From positions 6,386,001 through 6,450,000 of the forward strand of contig CM022665.1 in the NCBI GenBank assembly GCA_012295275.1: a stretch of DNA of 64,000 bases. Direction: 5' to 3'. Below are positions 35,340-52,800 of the stretch, one piece after another. Within the stretch, counting starts at the first letter, position 1. Every line of letters begins with the position of its first letter. The notes beneath the pieces are model-generated. The model did no database searches, was not told the origin of the DNA, and saw nothing but the letters and a program-made list of their open reading frames with translations. The stretch comes from Chrysomallon squamiferum (Eukaryota; Animalia; Mollusca). A program made the translations under genes and the position numbers.

Positions 35340-35504
35340 TAGATCGTTTCACGTGAGGTGTTGCCTCTAGACTTCGGCGCATGCTCATTATGAAAATAAT
35401 ATTCTGAACCAGTGACACCGGGGCTTACGCCGAACGAGGGAATTTGTAAAACGTAAATTGCCGAGGAGTACCGATTAAATTTCGAGAACATTAGTGTTTT
35501 TACT
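35340..35504 (+). promoter_or_regulatory. AMD1 proximal promoter and 5' leader (CpG-enriched)
   Basis: E-box CACGTG at 35350-35355, NRF1-like GCGCATGCTC at about 35377-35386, and local CpG enrichment directly upstream of the ATG at 35505. Confidence 0.5.
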
Positions 35505-38500: not shown

Positions 38501-41306
38501 AATGGGCATGTCCATTATATTAGCAGTCTACAGATTTGATTAGCCTTTTTAGTAAGAAAAATGAACTACAGTAACTTTGGCTTTTTATACCATGAACCCT
38601 CACTTTTCTTAAATATCTGGACTAGAAAACAATCCTAGTATTGTTAACAAGTATATATGCTAGTAGCACTGATTTCATAGCCCAAAAGTGATGTTTCAAA
38701 ACCCAAACCAAAAATGCTAATTCCTGGACAGTGCATCACACCCAGTTCAAACAAAATTTTCTCTGGATTGCCTTGTGTGTGTAATTCTGTCTTGTCTCTC
38801 AGTATAGTTTTGCTTGACTAATAAGCCTTCAGCATCAGTTATGAGTAATTTGCATATACAGTTCCTTTTTGTAAAAGGATCAATTTTATTGATCTTATTC
38901 AAACAAATTTTCAGTTTTTCTGCTAAAGAACCTTGGAATTTCACCTAAAGATATGTATCAAAATTATCAGGATCCAGTAAGTCTGAATTTGTATTTGTAA
39001 TCCCTATAGTATGTAGCTGTTACTTGCTTTTAAAATACAGCAAATTTCTTTCATGGTTTTCTTCAGGATATATTCTACTCAAGAAAGAACTTCTCACGTC
39101 CAGATCTACAGTTTGGGATACACAGAACCTTTGAAAATGAGGTATACTTTGTTTTTGTATGTTCATTCAACAGTTTAGAATATCTGAAACCTAAAAGATG
39201 TAAGAAACATATAAAATAAAAACTTTCGAATTTCATTTTTAAGTTCTATTGATTTTACATTATGATAAACAGAATTTGTGACACCATTTTTACAAAATAA
39301 TATTTCTGTTATATTTTTAATGTGTTTAGAAATCATTTCCATTTTCATCAGATGATCAATGTTAAATTAAAATGAAATTATTTTCTCTTTTTCAGGTTAG
39401 ACATTTGGATGAACTTTTCCCAAGTGAGTGTATTTTTATGTACAGTCAAACTTAAATAATTTGAATGTGAAGGTGTCAGCAAAATAGTTTTTTATAAAAT
39501 AGAATTTTTATAAAACAACAAAACCAGAAAACATAACCAGAAATAAACCCCAAGTATTTTTGGATTTCCAGACTTGGTGGAACATAATCAACAGAATTTC
39601 CATTTAATACATTTCTGCTAGATGTCTAATAATTTTGAAAATATGTGGACTGTGATAGTTAATATAGTTTTGTTTATATCGATTCTGATATTGTCACATT
39701 GTATTTCATTTGATTTTTGTTTATTGCTATACTGATTGATATTTATGAATTTTCTTCAGTATGACAATTTTGCTGTATTTTGTGCTGAGATGTCATTAAA
39801 TCTTAATTAATTAATTAAACCATTTTCAGCTAAATGGAGTAAAATCTAAGTCCAAAATGTAGTTGCTTCCGATCACTTGGCTGATTACTGTATGTTTAGA
39901 CTTGGAAAGTTTTGGGCTACTAATTTAAGATTTTAAGTTCAGCATTCTCTTTTCACAATAGATGGAGCTGCATATACATTGGGGCGTGTCAATCGTGATT
40001 GCTGGTAAGTTTCTTTTTTCTTCAACAAACTCTGTTCTCTATCAAATACACATTTGGCTGCTTTGTAAAATAAAAAATCTTAAATGTTATTATAGTTACA
40101 GTTTTATTAACAGCAACAACTTTAAATTACAAACTTTTACAAGTTAAATTCCCCCATCTTTTCATCTGTATGCTTTTGTGTTTAAACTGGAATCTGTATA
40201 ATAGATGTTTTTTCTGTTTTGTTATTTTTTTGCTTGGTGTGTGCAAATAAAAGTTGACAGTGTGAAAATTAATTTGTAGGTATCTTTATACTCTGGACCA
40301 GGAAGGAGTATTAATGCCTGACCAAACATTTGAAATATCCTTTTGACTGCTCTAAATGTGATGACATACATTTCATAACAATGTAATTTAAGAAAAACAT
40401 TTAAAATACAGTTTCAGTAACTTTTCAGCTGAAAGTTAAATTTATATAAAAAATGCAGAAGTAATTTTATATAGTTAATTTTGTTTCAATAAAATAACCA
40501 AAAAAAACCCGAGAGAAATAAGGAAAACAACATTATTTTTATTCTGCACATTTGTTATAAAAATAAGTAATGTTTTCTTGACAATGTGTACATTTTGATG
40601 TGGGACATGTGTCGAGACCGAATGAATATTTTCTCCAAGGAGGCGTGCAGCAGTGGATCTGAAGCAACAAAGGTTAGTTCAGATCTTGCATCTGGTAATT
40701 TACTTTAGTTTGTTGTTAATATGGTCATATCTGTTATCTGAACTGTTAAGTTTGATCTTAGCTGTCAGAGAGGTGAACTTGTCAGTTGAATGGTTTGATA
40801 ATGATCACATTTCAGTAACATTATACTTGTGTAAACACTGTACTTACAAAAAAGTCATAGTCACGTTGTTTCACAAAGCATTCATTATTTTTGTCATTCC
40901 ACATACTTCGGTTTTAATTTTAATTTTTTTTTTTTTTTTTATTATTTTTTTTTTTTTTAGACCCTTTATAATTATTACTTTTGTTTCTTACATTCAGTAG
41001 TTTACACAGGAGAGATACCTTCAGTTATTTATTGAAATTAACAGAAATAGTTCAAATATATGTTTTAGATATCGGGTATTGGTGACATCATTCCTGGTGC
41101 CAAGATTGATGACTTTATCTTTGATCCATGTGGATATTCTATGAATGGTCTTCTGCCTGGAGTAAGCCACTTTATCATTTTGTAATTTCAAGTCCTGAAT
41201 ATCTAAACAGATACTAACATACGGTTATTACATGTATTATCAGATAACACTGTTGCTTAAATCTGATGCAAGTGCTTGTTAAATGAACAGGATGTAAAAG
41301 ATAAAA

Positions 41307-41337
<31 letters not shown>

Positions 41338-43023
41338 CAGTCATTGTTGAAATTGTAATTTTAACATATATGTAAAATACTGAATTTTAATAAGAGCTTT
41401 TAAATCACTTAATAAACACATTTTATTTTGTTCCATTGTCAGGGTTACTACATCACAATTCATGTGACACCTGAACCTCAGTGCAGCTATGTCAGCTTTG
41501 AAAGCAATGTTCCAACAGTAAGTTCATTTTTATTTTTATATTTTATATTTTTTTTTTCTCCCACTAAAATAACATCTGCCATCAACTCTTTAGTACCGGT
41601 AGGTTTATACATGGGGAGTCTATCTGGTTTCAGAATTTTTTCCTTATTATATTTTTTATTTCTAGAATAATTTTAAATTTAGTTATTTAATTATAAATGC
41701 ACATATTTTTATTATTTTATTTTTATTTTTATTTTTATTTTTATTTTTATTTTTATTTTTATTTTTATTTTTATTTTTATTTTTTCAGGAATCCTATCAA
41801 GACCTGATGAAGAAAGTTCTTGATGTCTTTAGACCTGGAAAGTTTCTCATGACTGTGTTTGCAAATGAGGTGGGTTTATTATATAATTATACTTGTAAAG
41901 TGGTACAAAAAATAATTATAATAATAATAATTAAAAGAATCTATTGCTTTGTTGTACTGAGAAATATTTAGAAATACCTCATTTAATGAAAATTATTCAT
42001 TTCCATTTGTTATGTTGACGTTGTTTTTGTTTTTTCACAGTATATCTGATATCAGTTTATCACATTAATAGTTGTGGCCTTGTTATTGTTATAATTATTA
42101 TTTTTTTAATTTAAGCAATGTGGTATTTTTGTCTGTTAAACAAGTTTTAAATATCTGTATTAAAAGTTAATATTTTGAAATGGAGTTTTGTATGTAACTA
42201 TCAAACAATTACTTACAGTCTTTATTGTTAAAACTAAATAGCCAAAAAGACTCGTGCATGATACATTTATTTTATGTGGATGATATATCTGTGAACAGTA
42301 GCAGCACGCAAAGTAGTGTTTAACTTTAAATTGTTTTTGTGAAGTGATAAATATTCTGTATGATGAACAGTGGTTGTGAAATATCAGGTTGTAAAATTTA
42401 ATAGCTAAATTTACAGCAGCTAGAATAACAGTGCAACAAATTTCAGACATGAATAGAAATATATCCAAGTGTGTTTTAAATGATTCAGATTTAATGTCAG
42501 AATGTATGTCTTACAGTTTATAAACAAATGATTCTGTGTTAAGAACAACTAAAAAATAAAGGAAATAGTAAGTTAATGTGACTGGCCATTCTGTAAGTTC
42601 AGCTGGGTGACACAGTATTTGCATTTATTTACTTACTTACATGTTGTGTAGTACTATGGTTCTGGTCCTAGGAATGGCATATACATCAAGATTATACATT
42701 AGTTTACTGTTTACTGTATTAAACATAAAAAAATGTATCAAGTGACATTATTGAAAATTGAAATTATCATATTCTTTTTTAATCTGTTAAATTAGAACAA
42801 AACCAAATCGTTAGTAATGTAATCAGAAGTCTGTGCACCAGCATAATTAGTGTTCTCAACATATTGTTCCATTTTACAGGAATCAGTCGCTAGGGAGACT
42901 CATCGACAGCTGGAAAAGGAGAACAACTTCCTGAAAAAGGAATACGTGTGTCAGGATCACCAGTACTGCAACTTCAAGAACTACAAACTCACCTACATGT
43001 ACTTCTCCCGCCCAATCATTTAG
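35505..43023 (+). CDS. AMD1: S-adenosylmethionine decarboxylase proenzyme (AdoMetDC), 330 aa, 12 coding exons
   Basis: Exons: 35505-35608, 37651-37737, 38102-38228, 39067-39141, 39396-39423, 39962-40004, 40280-40334, 40592-40672, 41069-41161, 41443-41517, 41789-41869, 42880-43023 (993 nt). Motifs: [24 protein letters not shown] (pyruvoyl autocleavage E-S site), [64 protein letters not shown]. Confidence 0.97.
40335..40591 (+). other. U12-type AT-AC intron in AMD1
   Basis: 5' splice site ATATCCTTTT at 40335, branch-like TTTTCTTGAC at 40573-40582, terminal AC at 40590-40591. Removing it joins conserved PDQTFE|ILM in phase 0. Confidence 0.93.
41705..41785 (+). repeat. (TTTTTA)n hexamer tract abutting the AMD1 exon 11 acceptor
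   Basis: Visible run of ATTTTT units ending at tttttcag (41788). Confidence 0.85.
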
Positions 43024-43236
43024 GAGATAGTGTGCAGGGGTCCTACACAGTGTGGGTGCACCTGTAACAGGTTGCCACCCCTAGGACTTATCTGCACACC
43101 ATTGAGTTTGTTTTCAGTTTTGCTACAGTTATTGTCTTCTCTTTTTTGTCATGCTTACATCTTTTTATGGAAATCTCCTAAATCTAGAAAGAAATATCAG
43201 ATTGCTTGTGGATATGTTACCCGCACTCCTCGATAA
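43024..43236 (+). other. In-frame 70-codon ORF after the AMD1 stop (candidate readthrough extension)
   Basis: TAG (43021-43023) is followed by GAG ATA GTG TGC..., open to TAA at 43234-43236: EIVCRGPTQCGCTCNRLPPLGLICTPLSLFSVLLQLLSSLFCHAYIFLWKSPKSRKKYQIACGYVTRTPR*. Confidence 0.55.
43030..43099 (+). promoter_or_regulatory. GC-rich RNA stem-loop immediately 3' of the AMD1 stop codon
   Basis: GTGTGCAG (43030-37) pairs with CTGCACAC (43092-99); GGTCCTA (43039-45) with TAGGACT (43082-88); GGGTG (43054-58) with CACCC (43076-80); ACCTG (43060-64) with CAGGT (43068-72); TAA apical loop. Confidence 0.8.
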
Positions 43237-45952
43237 AATTCTGCTTTGGACAGTTTTTTTTTTTTTTTTTTTTTTACCGCTCTTTCTTCCTGAGAGGATA
43301 CAGTACCAAATACCAGACTGTTATTAAATTAACCTTTAGATTTTGTTACTAAATGTTCTTATTAATGAGAACTTTTTCAGTATTTGAAATAGAATATAAT
43401 CGTGATATGCCATTGGGTTTGACACTGGACTATTTATATTTTGTTTTTAGTCTGGAGTCCATTGTATAATTAGTGTTTATCTGGTTTTTATTGTTAACAC
43501 ACAATCTTACAAACTTCAGTGTTGTTTGTCAGCTCTTTTATTGGTTGAACTGTCATGTTTGTCAGTTTTATTTTAGCATAGAGGCTGTTATCTGTTGTTG
43601 CTAATAATTTTTGTGACTGTGCTGGTTAATTTTGGATTATGTGTATTTTATTTTAATTTTGTTAATGGATAAATTTCTTTAGTCAGCTCTGTAACCAATT
43701 TTGGGCATTTTATGATTTACATTTTCCTTTTTTATATGTTTATATGATAAATACATGTCCTTAGTGCTTTTTTTTTTTTTTTTAATTATTCCCAATGGTG
43801 TTTTATATCAAGTGCACCTAAATCTGACTTAACTGTCCTCAGGTAAAATAAGACATTTAAGACTTCAGCAATTTCTTCTACATTAGTACTTAGATTGCCT
43901 GCCTCCATTAGACAATAAAATACGTTACATACATATACAGTTACTACAATATTTATTAACAAATATAAAAATTATATGTAAATAAATAAATCATATTCTC
44001 CTAGCTTTACTGCTTAAACAATCTGATTTGCACATACAAACCATTTTTTTTAAATATCTATAATTATGTGATGCAGCAGCTTTAACTAAAACTTTAGTCA
44101 GTTATATTAATGGTCTAGATACTGTGAAAAATTTCTAAATGGTGTTTTGTAATTGGCAACCAATCTTTGCAAATAACAAAGTCTTAATACATTGAAAATT
44201 GTTATATCCTCAGTTGACATGTTGGATTTGTTCAACCTACTATTGATCTAATGAAACAAAGGACAGTTATGGCCTTTATACATCCCCCATGAATTTGTTA
44301 TAACAATGTCATATTCCACTATTAGCAGAAGTTGGTGTTTAGAAGCTAACAAAACAATAACTTGCAAATATGTGAAATATATTTTAAGATTATTTCATTA
44401 TTTACCAGACGTACCTTAATTATTAGGTACAGGTATAAAATTCTACATGCTTTCTGAGAATGAAGCATTCCAAGATGAGAAAAAGTGACTTAAAAGCTGA
44501 GTAATAAATTACTAGATACAGTGGGGTTTTTTTTGGGGGGGGGGGTTGTTTGGATTTTTTTTTTTGTTTTTACCTCTTGGAATTTGGACAGCTAAACCAA
44601 CCTTTTGCCTTAAAGCCATTCCATAGTACATGTATTTTGTAATATCATGACTAAAAAACTGTATAGAAAGGGGTATTATGTTTTTGAGTATTATTGATTT
44701 AACCTAATAATTCATTTCAAATTAGCTATAAACAAGTATTTTAGTATTCCTAGATTAATGATAATAATAGAAAGAAAAAAAAAAATAGTCATGGCTGAAT
44801 AAAGATTGTTGTAGATTTATATCTTCAGAGTTGAACATTTTGATAAAATTGCTATGAAAAATGCTGTATGTATTATGTATTACATAGTATCATTGGTATA
44901 CTTTAACATGAATGGCAAAAGTACTGTGGAATGGCTTGATATATGGAGAAATAATAACAAAAATGTACTTGGGGGTTATTTTCATGATGATTTTTTGCTA
45001 ACAACTTTGAGATTAGAATGCCAAGTCAGTTTGTGGTTGATTTTTATAAAATGTAATTAATTAAATTATTAAAATAAAATTTTAATAATGTAAAAAATTA
45101 CACTTTGTTAATCGGTTGTTATATTTTTATTAATATATATATTTAATGGAAGCTGTGTGGCAATACATTTGATTATGTAATTAATTCAGTTGTTACTGTG
45201 TAACAAAAGGTAATGTAGGTGATATATGATGAAACATTTATGTGATCATTACCAATTCATTATTCTGGAATGTGTTAACAGTCTAGATTATGTCATGCAC
45301 TCATATGTCAACACATTTGTACAAATGCGAAAACACAAAACAAGACAATCTAAAGTACTATTAACATTTATGTTTAATTAAAAAAGGTTTTATACACATA
45401 TTTGTTAACAACGACTGCAGTAACAATCTAAAATACCAGAAACTAGAAAGTATAAATTTAAATTAAAAAAAAAAGAATTTCAAAACTTTTCTGTTTAATG
45501 TTTTAACACACAGCATACATATACACCTTCATCTTATAAAAAGAGCTAATATCAAAATTGTAATAATATATTTTCATAAAATATTATCATAATGTGTTGG
45601 GACACTACTGTCACATCATTTGATATCATGTAAATTCTATGCTTGGCCTCTAACATAGATTGAGAAATCAGTGTCCTGTAACATTCAGTATTTTAACAAC
45701 ATTCTGGGCTTACAATTGTACATTTCTTACTTTTTTTTTTTTTAGATTTGTCCTGTTTTAAAACTGTCAAAATAAATCTCAAAAGCTCATTTTCATATTT
45801 TTGAACATACTGCTATCAGTCAGTAATTTATAAAATGGCATCAATATTCTTTTATATATATATATATATATATATTATAAAGAATATTTCTTAAGTATTA
45901 TTTCAAGACATTTGGAAGAATTAATCTGGAAATTTTTTATTATTATTATTGT

Positions 45953-45990
<38 letters not shown>

Positions 45991-48900
45991 CTCACAATAT
46001 TTTGAGTTCATTTTCTGCAACAATTCCTACTTGGGAGTGATGAAGTAATCATTGTTTCTCGTGTAATTCATAAACTGTTCTTTTGACAGTTTTCATTAAT
46101 GGTTCTTGTAGTAAGATTCAGTTCACTTCATATCCATGTATTCTCTTCATTACTGATCAGGACACCAGATTCATTATTATTCAAACATCACTTTAAATAT
46201 GCAAAATAAAATAAAAGTGGGGGTGTTTATTTTATTATATTTATTATTATCAGTTTTTAGAAATCATTGGGAATGAGGAGCACTTTACAGAATATTCGTA
46301 CACTGAAACATTTAAGATTTTCTATTCCGAGCCAATGAATGTGTAAAATAGTGAAAATTATAAATTACATTCAAATAATAACGTTCTGTTTGCATAATAC
46401 TGAAGAAAATGTTATGATTTTAGTATCCATGAATTCCCCAAACCCCAGTAATACCTATTTTTTACATAACCCTTTTTGACTGTTTATATCTTTAGGAATA
46501 AGAATTTAAAATAATGAGGTTTTTTTTAGGTATAATAATTAAATAATTGTTATACAAGGAGGATAAATTATATTTAATGTACATAAGCTGGATAATTTGT
46601 GTTAGATATAGATTTGATAAGATTTACCTATGAAAAAGAATATGGAGGGAAAAAAAAATGAATTGAAATTTGCAATTGTTTGAAGTAAAACAGAAAATAT
46701 AAATTTTTAAAATTTTATTATATAACGAGATATGTTCCTTTATACAGCAAATAGAAAAATATTGGCTGTTTTTATAACATTTATCTAAAAATAATTTTTT
46801 ATTTGGATCTTGTTTTTTCCTCATTGCACAATGAAATAATTGTAATCATTGCATGAATGTGTATTTAATTGTGATGATAAATTTAAATCTGCAGATGCTG
46901 TGAATTTACTCCACTAACACATCAAAAATAATAATAATAATAATTCCAAGAAAAAAAATGCCTTATACAGGAGATAGAAAAACACCATTGTTTTCACTTT
47001 TTAAAATATTTTATGCATGTTGATCTGTTAAATTTTGTATTTATTTTTACATTTATTCAAAAAACTAAAAATTATAAAAAAAATTATGGAGATACAGAAT
47101 TTTTATAGCTACGAATGGTAAAACAATACCATGTTCAATTTGTAATCTTTTCATAATGCTGTTTAATCACTGTGTTGTTATACAACGTGTGGCTAATAAA
47201 ATATACTGGTTTAAAATGTATTTGTTTTCTTGAACAGTATAAAAAGATTATTTAAAAGATTACATTTGTAACCTTTACCTAACGAATACTAACATTTGCA
47301 GTTACACTAGTTAGCACTATGTAGAAAGTAATTTTGATTAAGTGCTATTTGATCTTACCTTTTGATAGAATTTTTTTATTATTAAACTAATTTATTGTAG
47401 ATTATATAACTCAAAGCATTTTAATTTTAGCAAACATTTATGATCCTTATTGACTTTTCCAAATTTCTAAATAAATTAAGCTGACACTTTTATTTCTATT
47501 TATTACCTTATTTCAGTTTGTGTTTTTGTTCGTTTTGTTTTGTGGGGGTTTTTGTGTTTTTGTTTTGTTTTGTGGGGTTTTTTCTATGTTTTTGTTGCAG
47601 GTTTTTGTTTTTGTTGTTGTTGTTGTTGTTTATTTTTACTCTTCCCACACCCCTTTTTAATGTTTTATTTTAATATAAGAATAACGTTTTTGTGGAACTT
47701 ATTTTAACAAATCTCATAATATATGGCTTGGTAAAGACGATAAATAACATTACAATAAGTAGTTTCATAAACTGGTTTAAAATCATTCTCTGGAAGGTAA
47801 TGGTTGCAGTATACGTGTTATTATGTATCTAAATTTGATCTTTGCTTTATGTTTTCCGTGAGCTGATTTTGAATAAACACTAACACTATAGTCTTTCTTA
47901 TTTATTTATGCAGATATAATAAACATAATTCTGTTATCACAGATGTGATAGAACAAAAATGTTTTTGAAAAGAGAGCTATAGCTGGAAGATAAGAGTTCT
48001 GACTTCAGGCATTGTAAGTCACTTTATCAACTCTGTTCGGTGCTTGTATGTATTTGCCACCGCAGCCTTACCCCAAAAGCAGGATCACAAAAGAACTTTG
48101 CACGTTCATCCCCCCCACCCCATCGATAGAAACGTGCACAATTCGGATTCAAAGCGAAACCTATAGCATTTTTATATAACTCCGTTTAAACCGTAGATAT
48201 AAAATCTTGAATACGTCTTTAAATGAAACGTAATGAATAATATATATTCTTTCTCAAACAAATTTTTAAATTGAAATAAATTGGGGTGGGGTTAAAATTA
48301 TTATAATTATTTTAATTTTTTATCTTCTAGTTTATTTCCTACAAATGTATTTATATAATTATTTACGTCGCGGAACGATAAAAATTGGTTCGTGATTTTC
48401 ACAATTTTAATTGCATGACACGACCATTGCTAATATTTGTAGCCATCAAAACAGTAAATCAGCTTGGCAGACTGATACGAACAAAACTTTGATGTATGAC
48501 TTTTACTGACAGAAACAACAAAACAAAATTTAATGAGGAGTACATGAATATTTATTTCTCGAACACTACATTAGGAAATGAAAACATATGCTAAGCCTTG
48601 TTTTGAACGTTAAAAGCAGAGACTGTAATATGACACTTTTTTTCAATTTACGTTCCTATCGTTTTACATATCGATTTCTTGTGAAATTTAAAGAAACCTG
48701 CAGTATAGCTACTGGGATTAAATCTTTGTGATTAACCCATTACAAAAAATACACCAACCATTGTTAGCTGTACAAATAAATAATGACATATGTTTTTTTT
48801 AATGAATTTTGTTTATGTTGTGTTTTTTTTGTTGTTGTATGTTGTTGTTTGCTAAATATGGTAACAGGAGACAAAACAGTTAATTACCTAATCAATTTCT

Positions 48901-49833: not shown

Positions 49834-52800
49834 TCACTTTCCCCACAGGGCTTCAACAGAAAACAAAATGTCTGCTATATTTCCGTCCAACAGCTTATCG
49901 TTAAGAAAATTACTTCCGTTTTCCAAAGTTGGAAATTCCGTTTCTTCATCTGGTTGATTGTCGACGTATTCGTAACCATTCCCGCGAGCTTTTTCTGGTG
50001 GACATAAGTTTAACAAACTTACGCTTTTTCTTCTTGAATTTAAATAAATCTGATTTTCTGTCGGTGGGATTTCAATACGATCCAGTTCTCCCAAACTTGA
50101 GCTGTAGGAAAACTGCTTTGGTTTGCTAAGAAAAGCTTTAAATCCACTGCAGTTACCATTCTTCGCATCGAAGGAAGATAACGTATCAAATTCCATATCC
50201 CGATCAGTTTCACTGTACAGACTCTCCATTGAAGCATTCTTCAAGTCATCGTGTTCTTCATCCAGATCATCGCTGAATGTTCCCTGTCGACTGTTCTTTG
50301 TTTGACGGAATATTGACCTCGGGTCCAGACTGTTATCGTCTGCAGAACGCGAGGATTTGGTGTACCTTTGTGATCCAGAACTTGCATGAGATTCACAAGA
50401 TGCTGAATTCTGTCGTACTGGCTGTCCTCTGACATTGTTCTTGGAATCGTCACAAACCTTGCTCAGCTGTCTTACAAAGCTAGACGTATCCAATTCAACG
50501 TTATCGTTTTCTGCCATTTCTGCTAACCAGGCGATTAGTTTGTCATAAGAATCTACAGAAGGTCCTCGTAACTTCTCGATTTTATTCAACGTGCGAGCTG
50601 GAAAATAAAAAAATCTTGTGTTAAGAATTTATTTAAAATTAATAATACATATTTCAGAATCTCTAATACGGATTTCTTCATTTCTGATGTGTATCCGTGT
50701 AGAAACTCTGCAAGTTTTATTAAGTCTGTATAAAGATAATTTAGTTATTTACAGAAAGCAAGCATCTTACTGACTTCGTTCGATAGTGGACATACAAATA
50801 CTAATTCTTTGATCACCCTGAGTTAAAAAGCTTGATTTCTTTACCATCACACACACACACACACACACACACACCCAAAACACAAATATTTCGAATTTAG
50901 TGCATGCATATTGTTGTTTTGAAAGATTATTTCTAGGTGGGTTTTTTTATGTTCTATTAAATCACCTCGTATATAATGAATGTTTCCATTAATTTTCATT
51001 AGTAATTTTTTTTTTTTTAAATTATTATTATTATTATTATTATGTTTATTATGTTTATTATGTTTATTATTACTTTTATCTTTCCTGCTACATCTTTATC
51101 AACATTCGTTTAATAAAAAAAAAAAAAGTTCCTCTGAATACTGATTACTTTGTTAATCTGTGTGTGTGTGTGTGTTGTTGTTTTTTTGTGCGCGCGCGTA
51201 TATGTGTAAAATAAAAATAGAAGCATGCAAAAAAAGCAGGACACTGACTTCTACATTTCACTACAGGGAACATAGCATGAAAAAAACGTCTTTATTAAGA
51301 TGGCAGTTTAATGAAGTCTGGTAACAGTTTTGCAGCCCTGTTAACAAATGAAAAACTCTGTAAGATTAATTTCATTTAGAGCTGCACTTTAACGTACATG
51401 TATTTTTCATTCTGTTACTGCGGTCACTCCTTGGCAGTCAATTAGTATGAAAAACGACGAAATCAGTTTAGAACAGGTAATATTAAAACTAAGCGGGGTA
51501 ACAACTGCTTACGTTCAATATGGCCCGCGTTTAACGAGAGATAAAACCAATAGTGGAGAAACGTGCGGCGAACTGATGTAATTAGGAACGGAATGTTTCC
51601 GATATACCTTTGAGCAGATAACGCTTTGAAATTAAACGAAAATGGCACACAGTTCATGAAGTACTAAAGGATAGTGTTGTTAATTAACAAGCTTTTACAT
51701 TATGAGATAAACCAGTGTAACTAAGTAATTACAACTTTAAAACCTCACGGGACTGGTCGAAAAGAATTAAAATTGAAATAGTTTTTTTTTTTTTTTTTTT
51801 GTAGTACAATGGTCATTTTGATAAATACGTTAGCGAGTTCATTTTCCACAGACACTTTTACCCCAGTGGTCTAACTAAAATAACTTAAAATATTAAAACT
51901 AAATCTGTGTTTTGTAGGTGTATACTGTTCTAATTTTTAAAGTGACTATACCGGTGTTGGTTATTATTTATTACATGGCCGTAAGTACAAGTAGGCAAAT
52001 GAGGTAAATGCCTCGAACTGAAATTGCCGATATGTATATATTTTTTTATTATTATTTTTTTAAATACAAAGATGTTCTTTAAAAATATATAAAATATAAA
52101 TGGCTAGACTCGAGGATTTTGGACCTTTTAAGTTGGAGCTTCTGAGGGACCTCAGTCGACCCCCAGACCCTTTCGCCCAAATTAAAGTATTTTTGCCTCA
52201 TTTCAAAAAGAGTCTAGTTACGGCCATGTATTATATTTGTTAAAGACACAGTTGTTAAAATGATTCGACCTGTTTTTTATATTGTTCTGTTTGTTTGTTA
52301 CTGTTTGTATATTGTTATAATTGTTAAAATGATTCTGTTTGTATAGTTACTGTTTGTATATTGTTATAATTGTTAAAATGATTCTACCTTCTTTGTATAC
52401 ACTGCCTGTGTTTTGTTTCAAGTTCTATTTCTAAAAGTAACTGTTCCTGTTTTGAATATTGTTCTATCTGTAAAAGTGATCTTTGATGTATACTGCTGTA
52501 TTTCTTAAAGTGATTCTGTTCTGTTTGTAAAAGTGACTCTACCTGTGTTGTATATTGTTCTGTTTTAAAAGTGACTATATCTGTGATACCAAATTAGTTT
52601 CTTTTCTACAATTTCTACATTTAAAAGTAATTTTCTCGACTCGGCTTTACGTTACAGTGTGTTACTATATCAATACAGCATGTTTGTCTGCAAGTTCCTT
52701 CACGTAAACGAATCGCAAAATGAACTGAACCCAAACTGAAATGAAAAGATTTGTTTTTCTTTTTCTATTTTTTTGTTATTCAAAACAAAGTTATTACAAA

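Follow-up and report, generated by a model that had tools for sequence, protein, structure and literature searches.

The gene AMD1 (S-adenosylmethionine decarboxylase), in a stretch of 64,000 nucleotides (nt) of Chrysomallon squamiferum DNA (contig CM022665.1, positions 6,386,001 to 6,450,000, forward strand), carries behind its stop codon an element that is likely to promote stem-stimulated readthrough, probably followed by a ribosome stall at the end of an in-frame tail. This stretch is referred to as the window and is numbered from its first letter. By comparison with related sequences the element is real and conserved. It represents a lophotrochozoan form of the AMD1 readthrough tail that is new and combines a covarying RNA stem, the presumed stimulator, with a candidate arrest peptide of its own. 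A first-pass annotation had read the region as a structure-linked AMD1 readthrough cassette. This reading is supported by a second mollusc AMD1 mRNA (L001), which shares open frame, UAG-G, spacer and a covarying basal stem. Two features had been overlooked: the conserved last 25 codons of the tail and an 11-nt complement of the stop region (43173-43183).

Stop codon, stem and mollusc orthologue

Sequence and fold agree with the arrangement described in the first pass, i.e. a TAG (43021-43023), GAGATA and a four-helix hairpin (43030-43099). With -35.0 kcal/mol (z -3.15) the hairpin was equalled in stability by 3 of 500 dinucleotide shuffles, and it ranks first among 6,393 segments of 70 nt sampled from the + strand of the whole window. 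It is also unusually GC-rich, as had been noted, with 57% compared to 27% in the untranslated region (UTR) 3' of the tail. No Rfam match was found over the hairpin with E up to 5 in the region 42500-46000. A selenocysteine signal (UGA with a selenocysteine insertion sequence, SECIS) or another Rfam element does not fit, the stop being UAG and the hairpin being without Rfam match in this search.

To obtain relatives, metagenome contigs were scanned with an alignment of 27 mollusc AMD1 proteins, giving 359 matching stretches and 307 relatives, the best 80 of which were kept. Among these, L001 is the sole mollusc mRNA. It clusters with heterobranchs such as Aplysia (support 99), whose lineage separated from that of the window snail more than 400 million years ago. 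Its coding sequence (CDS) ends in UAG-G, followed by a 6-nt spacer with the same first four bases as in the window and by a 175-codon in-frame tail; over the 22 nt directly 3' of the stop, 16 positions are identical. A check of orthologues for frame breaks and stem covariation, proposed in the first pass, was thus answered in favour of the cassette.

The 16 compared pairs of the basal stem are unchanged in 11 cases, changed on both sides in two, changed on one side in two and broken in one. In L001 the basal helices with their 2-nt bulge are spaced from the stop as in the window (start at +7), with pair probabilities mostly above 0.9. The loop inside the basal stem measures 36 nt in the window and 258 nt in L001, where it includes a frame-keeping 30-nt tandem repeat. 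Because of this long insertion the MAFFT alignment misplaces the tail end, and arms and codons were therefore compared anchored on the stops. Of the four helices originally described, the two basal ones are conserved in L001, whereas the two apical ones are not.

Four annelid-like mRNAs (L003-L006) likewise combine a stem, starting at about +5 to +13 after the stop, with an in-frame tail. A long stem starts at about +10 in three related annelid-like rows, where 10 of 58 consensus pairs are changed on both sides, and in L003 the bases +5 to +24 pair with bases about 590 nt away. A uniform stem test, in which an arm at +5 to +30 was paired with the rest of the UTR and had to beat 95% of 100 shuffles, was passed by six of six lophotrochozoan-type sequences (four lineages, the window having been picked for its hairpin), by two of five other rows and by one of 25 rows labelled fungal-type from their C-termini. 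Two properties of an extended 3' stem-loop stimulator are present, namely a start about 6-12 nt after the stop and, in the two mollusc sequences, a covarying basal stem with a variable loop.

Conserved end of the tail

The AMD1 frame stays open for 70 codons up to the TAA at 43234-43236, as the first-pass annotation had stated. Taken alone this is modestly unusual and not decisive: open frames of at least 70 codons occurred in 353 of 20,000 shuffles (1.8%) and in 80 of the 8,830 stop-to-stop segments of the window.

BLASTP gave an ungapped alignment of the last 25 residues of the window and L001 tails that runs up to the second stop of each (12 of 25 identical, E=1e-7). Stop-anchored scoring of the two tail ends gave 74, compared to a null maximum of 27 among 14,579 stop-anchored 25-mers from all loci and frames; this maximum is itself the tail of the annelid-like L003. 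Off-frame readings of the same alignment contain stops and show 5 and 3 identities of 24, against 12 in frame. The last 26 codons comprise 6 identical, 7 synonymous and 13 non-synonymous positions, and nucleotide identity drops from 38/75 before the second stop to 13/40 after it. Conservation is concentrated before the second stop, as in the vertebrate tail.

The candidate arrest peptide consists of a Trp at -22, a basic cluster and the end G-Y-x-x-R-x-P-[RK]-stop. The motif W-x-S-x-[KQ]-x-[RK]-[RK]-K is common to the window, L001, L003 and L004, and the distance from this Trp to the second stop is 22, 22, 22 and 23 residues, respectively, although the tails comprise 70, 175, 250 and 126 codons. 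Tail ends of arthropod-like rows are unlike the snail motif and read W-x(2-3)-[KRE]-I-S-stop in 7 of 11 rows with closed tails. In four arthropod-like rows, compared in six pairs that are not independent, the last 15 codons show a total of 30 synonymous and 4 non-synonymous changes. We infer from the conservation of the last 25 residues only, at a fixed distance from the stop, that the snail peptide has the look of a nascent-chain arrest sequence. The selected part, the last ~25 residues, fits a signal for stalling or decay better than a stable isoform of 401 amino acids (aa). The length of ~401 aa given in the first pass is retained.

Searches for known proteins with such a tail gave no relatives. 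As a separately called protein it had no match in a set of 5.8 billion proteins, none was found in the Atlas, and no Pfam family was detected in the four tails tested. Two matches among 1.84 billion representatives were rejected as repetitive proteins aligning to the hydrophobic stretch. With the last exon plus tail as query, the sole match among longer proteins was Gigantopelta AMD1, in which the tail is absent. Searching the PDB with the last AMD1 exon gave no match. One match of the tail alone was dismissed as chance, as were weak matches of the tail-end profile to ribosomal protein eS26 (best E=0.011). This profile of four tail ends returned no AMD1 tail chain from a PDB copy that may or may not include it.

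Frame conservation in AMD1 relatives

Frame statistics were based on 52 of the 80 loci and the window, leaving out five without stop, nine near-duplicates and 14 unclassified non-animal loci. Tails of at least 40 codons occur in frame in 17 of 21 bilaterian rows, compared to 6 and 3 of 21 in the off-frames. The median lengths are 70 codons in frame and 14 and 13 off frame (Wilcoxon p=6e-5, the rows being related and not independent). For fungal-type rows the corresponding counts are 6, 5 and 4 of 27, and for unplaced animal-like rows 1, 0 and 0 of 5. A conserved open frame behind the stop, known from the vertebrate AMD1 readthrough-stall tail, is therefore found here as well. None of 120 AMD1 proteins among the matches listed carries a tail-like C-terminal extension. 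Prokaryote genome contigs and viral contigs contained no further mollusc AMD1 DNA; one bacterial pattern match in the former was dismissed as chance.

Comparison with known systems

The first-pass annotation had likened the signal to that of gammaretroviruses. This holds for UAG-G and the short purine-rich spacer, both shared with the gag-pol signal of murine leukaemia virus (MuLV), in which the spacer is 8 nt long. The snail structure is, however, an extended stem-loop of the alphavirus/kelch/headcase type with arms 36 or 258 nt apart and a non-conserved loop, in contrast to the compact MuLV pseudoknot; this distinction rests on arm distance and loop non-conservation and was drawn from non-pseudoknot folding.

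Stems with 7-12-nt spacers and free loops (alphavirus, kelch, headcase) boost readthrough 3- to 14-fold (PMC3159437). With the stem-loops of alphaviruses, furoviruses, Drosophila kelch and headcase and SEPN1 the snail element shares a short spacer, a bulged basal stem of 10-16 pairs and a loop of tens to hundreds of nt. It differs in belonging to a cellular gene outside Pancrustacea, in UAG-G instead of UGA-C, in a spacer of 6 nt (as in SEPN1) instead of 7-12, and in its coupling to a candidate arrest tail and not to a folded domain.

Readthrough with subsequent stalling has been described for vertebrate AMD1 (PMC13025110, PMC7089771). The human tail stalls via a clamp of K117, R121 and F124 and an Arg125 hook, while the trigger of the vertebrate AMD1 tail is an open question according to this 2026 structure paper (PMC13025110); the tail is also a degron with a role of BAG6 (10.1101/2022.07.20.500724). 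Gene, in-frame tail, conservation of the last 20-25 residues, penultimate Pro and hydrophobic stretches are common to vertebrates and snails. The vertebrate tail comprises 127 codons, compared to 70-175 in snails, and UAG-G is the snail stop. The covarying 3' stem is a snail feature; the word 'stem' does not occur in PMC13025110. By-eye likeness of the vertebrate and snail tail ends is confined to a few residues.

Except in vertebrates and sea squirts, regulatory upstream open reading frames (uORFs) of AdoMetDC have Pro as their penultimate residue (PMC2811004). The polyamine-responsive uORF peptides of AdoMetDC and antizyme inhibitor resemble the snail tail in a short conserved C-terminus flush with the stop, in penultimate Pro or Pro-Ser and in the pathway concerned. 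They lie upstream and block scanning, whereas the snail tail lies downstream and needs readthrough first.

Among invertebrates, AGAP009619, the SamDC orthologue of Anopheles gambiae, is given as a 268-codon UGA-G readthrough candidate by Jungreis et al. 2016 (PMC5100048, Supplemental Data S1, row 270). The entry is a table row on which the main text is silent, with no RNAz structure entered and no mechanism, and Drosophila SamDC is classified there as non-readthrough. AGAP009619 and the snail gene share an invertebrate AMD1 with a long in-frame tail and a stop followed by G; UGA-G and the insect host are different. The first-pass statement that no description was known is thus superseded by this row for insects, but stands for molluscs and annelids, for which no AMD1 tail is described in the literature searched for AMD1/SamDC/AdoMetDC readthrough in invertebrates (several supplements lay outside its coverage). 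The word 'invertebrate' is absent from PMC13025110, and the accessible part of PMC5009743 contains no mention of AMD1.

Alternative explanations

Readthrough might be real and the tail nevertheless produce a functional, relocated AMD1 isoform without any stall, either tail-anchored in a membrane or directed to the nucleus by its basic cluster. The hydropathy maxima over 19 residues (1.88 in the window, 1.91 in L003, 1.93 in L004) would suit such an isoform, the hydrophobic stretch of these three tails stopping 19-32 residues before the tail end with the basic cluster next, and so would the absence of the vertebrate clamp. L001, however, reaches only 1.24, the tails range between 70 and 250 codons with conservation confined to stop-proximal residues at fixed distance, and the human tail is a degron. 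We regard this explanation as improbable.

Quite unlikely is the absence of any recoding, with the stem serving as a 3' UTR element for stability, localisation or protein binding and with open frame and peptide likeness as by-products. The chance frequency of the open frame given above and the comparison with one mollusc orthologue leave some room for it. Against this, the likeness occurs in frame only, includes synonymous changes and ends at the second stop, and lineage-specific motifs recur in annelid-like and arthropod-like rows.

Recoding of the stop by adenosine-to-inosine editing (UAG to UIG, Trp) was considered in view of the 11-nt inverted repeat 43018-43028 / 43173-43183, which pairs the stop region with codons of the conserved tail motif. 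The helix can stack on the hairpin, and its perfect complement, 144 nt away and covering the stop, compares with 0.08 such matches per window in shuffles. However, no A>G at 43022 is present in the RNA contigs of runs X1 (depth 116) and X2 (depth 26.5), which drop rare variants. The complement is lost at the matching place of L001 (best duplex -9.3 compared to -12.9 kcal/mol), a longer mRNA context favours local pairing with the A of the stop mostly unpaired, and the conserved stem begins 3' of the stop and not across it. Editing is accordingly rated as very unlikely.

Least credible of all is an alternative last exon joining exon 11 to an in-frame acceptor at 43128|43129, which would skip the stop and therefore need no recoding: the phase 0 end of exon 11 and an in-frame CAG ending at 43128 with 70% pyrimidines upstream would allow it, but the L001 tail has no acceptor with at least 65% pyrimidines, no joint or piece starting at 43129 is found in X1 and X2 among the matches listed (contigs drop rare forms), the enzyme would presumably lose its last strands, and both the uninterrupted frame of 70-309 codons between stop and motif and the stem at +7 would be left unexplained. 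Reinitiation was ruled out because the window tail contains no in-frame AUG, and frameshifting because the conserved peptide sits in frame 0.

Proposed mechanism

For stem-stimulated readthrough with a probable stall we propose the following sequence of events. Very likely, a fraction of the ribosomes would decode the UAG as sense and translate the tail. The basal stem, located at the mRNA entry site, would probably raise this fraction, as stems of alphaviruses do. With somewhat better than even chances, the last ~25 residues would act from within the exit tunnel, so that release at the second stop is delayed. The 401-aa product may be sent to BAG6-type decay by the hydrophobic stretch that precedes the tail end, which fits the BAG6 degron role of the human tail. 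If the product decays, readthrough would lower AMD1 output and no useful isoform would be made. Only tentatively do we suggest a polyamine response via Pro-containing ends at both stops; the link of the snail tail to polyamines is indirect, via the likeness of its penultimate Pro to AdoMetDC uORFs. By its anatomy the tail would work like the vertebrate one, although a common peptide family is not demonstrated.

Several observations weigh against this proposal. With a single mollusc orthologue found, covariation within molluscs was assessed from two sequences, and of the 16 basal pairs one is broken in L001. The uniform stem test was passed by 1 of 13 arthropod-type rows, the test being blind to short local hairpins such as that of six crustacean-like rows, which is conserved but shows no compensatory changes. 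Two bilaterian rows, L039 and L052, have tails of just 7 and 5 codons. At the tail end the proportions of synonymous and non-synonymous differences are 0.63/0.45, a weak contrast beside 0.82/0.31 at the CDS end, and selection on the tail end is therefore looser than on the enzyme. L004 scores 0 in the stop-anchored comparison with the window tail end, a value equalled by 1.7% of the null, and the penultimate Pro of the window, L001 and L004 is absent from L003. A by-eye comparison shows the vertebrate clamp (Lys -11, Arg -7, Phe -4) to be missing in the snails, which have Ile/Val, Tyr and Arg, so that Tyr -7 / Arg -4 is the reverse of human Arg -7 / Phe -4; an Arg hook at -3 occurs in L001 only, with Thr in the window, while Pro -2 is present in both snails. 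Regarding the vertebrate precedent, the queueing model is contested (PMC8831848), no ribosome queues were seen (PMC7089771), and deletion of the 21-codon pause failed to rescue reporter loss (10.1101/2022.07.20.500724).

Gene, transcript and further observations

The features of the element and its gene are compiled in Table 1. A PF01536 (AMD1 / SAM decarboxylase) match lies on exon 3, in line with a homologous and intact CDS. The nearest relative is AMD1 of Gigantopelta aegis (93% identity; sister, support 100) in a quick tree, the careful search being unfinished. Going by AMD1 relationship, the host is a peltospirid-like snail. The 12 exons encode 330 aa, and the readthrough product would therefore comprise 401 aa. 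RNA contigs of X1 and X2, two of four runs, contain the exon 11-exon 12 splice and agree with the window at every position of 42878-43244; the other two, X4 and X5, do not cover the tail and say nothing either way. At the 3' end RNA contigs extend to at least 45600.

Table 1. Coordinates of the AMD1 gene and of the elements around its first and second stop
Feature	Position	Strand	Basis
AMD1 (S-adenosylmethionine decarboxylase) CDS, intact, 12 exons, 330 aa	35505..43023	+	exon model, translation, PF01536, tree
Last four sense codons R-P-I-I	43009..43020	+	mollusc-wide [RP]-P-[IVY]-[IL] motif directly before stop
First stop UAG with G at +4, candidate readthrough codon	43021..43024	+	sequence; UAG-G also in L001
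6-nt spacer GAGATA between stop and stem	43024..43029	+	equal length in L001
In-frame 70-codon tail, no in-frame AUG; hydrophobic stretch ~43081-43137	43024..43233	+	translation, hydropathy, spliced RNA contigs
Basal stem, 5' arm, predicted readthrough stimulator	43030..43045	+	16 pairs compared with L001
Apical part of hairpin, 36 nt, not conserved	43046..43081	+	258 nt in its place in L001
Basal stem, 3' arm with 2-nt bulge	43082..43099	+	fold and L001 comparison
Conserved last 25 codons and second stop UAA (43234-43236), candidate arrest peptide	43159..43236	+	BLASTP, stop-anchored scoring
11-nt perfect complement of 43018-43028 (includes stop), unexplained	43173..43183	+	inverted repeat; absent at matching place in L001

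Among the matches listed, [RP]-P-[IVY]-[IL] directly abuts the stop in 36 of 37 mollusc-type AMD1 proteins, even behind insertions of up to 27 aa, and a Pro-Ser C-terminus is found in 62 of 83 non-mollusc-type proteins. About 100 nt 5' of the AMD1 start a short uORF of 8 or 5 codons is located (35381-35407, +), which is not MAGDIS-like; no MAGDIS-like uORF occurs in the window AMD1 leader or in the animal leaders examined. Intron 7 (40335-40591, +) has AT...AC ends, the only splice that keeps the frame and matches Gigantopelta AMD1. With its U12-type donor and a branch-point-like motif just 5' of the acceptor it is a likely minor-spliceosome intron. Head-to-head with AMD1 lies a multi-exon kinesin gene (~3450-30850, -), presumably KIF28-like by its motifs. 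An open frame of 264 codons at 49837-50628 (-) is probably a large exon of a neighbouring gene.

Further observations concern the other AMD1 mRNAs. In eight arthropod-like sequences (L007, L018, L021-L024, L026, L029) Pro-Ser-UGA-G precedes tails of 43-309 codons with an Ile-Ser-stop end like that of MAGDIS. Crustacean-like rows have a common short hairpin ~12-17 nt 3' of the stop, and the copepod-like L008 and L014 share a short G+C-rich hairpin at ~+10 to +35. The divergent, unplaced L010 (1076-1397) has UAG-G and a strong hairpin from ~+7 (z -5.25), and its tail of 106 codons ends in an unrelated sequence. Three unplaced animal-like, short-tailed mRNAs contain uORFs ending in F-x(0-1)-G-[YH]-x(3-4)-P-P-stop (L002:63-104, L012:118-162, L028:115-165). 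These ends loosely resemble the snail tail end, and a stall peptide may be placed upstream or downstream depending on lineage. In L041 (2111-3073) a eukaryote-type AMD1 with UGA is followed in frame by an open reading frame that we assume from its motifs to be spermidine-synthase-like; the two would form either an operon-like pair or a second case of readthrough.

Significance

Control by the AMD1 tail has so far been studied only in vertebrates, where its purpose is disputed between queueing, decay of the product and decay of the mRNA. That snails, annelid-like worms and arthropods all retain a tail, with different end peptides, speaks for an old design under selection. A further-reaching possibility, which we put forward as speculative and rather unlikely, is that readthrough and stall at AMD1 represent an ancestral bilaterian feedback switch for polyamines that predates the protostome/deuterostome split. 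Molluscs, annelids, arthropods and vertebrates would all have retained it, with the arrest peptide rebuilt in each lineage, the lophotrochozoan RNA stem setting the rate and Pro-containing ends at both stops sensing polyamines.

The lineage variants of the tail offer natural material for finding its invariant features. As a covarying stimulator, the predicted snail stem could be removed by point mutations, and no such handle is described for the vertebrate case in the literature covered. If the proposal is true, readthrough at the snail AMD1 stop would be a cellular case stimulated by structure outside Pancrustacea, in lineages for which abundant readthrough was not detected, and the end of its tail is a candidate for a new eukaryotic arrest peptide.

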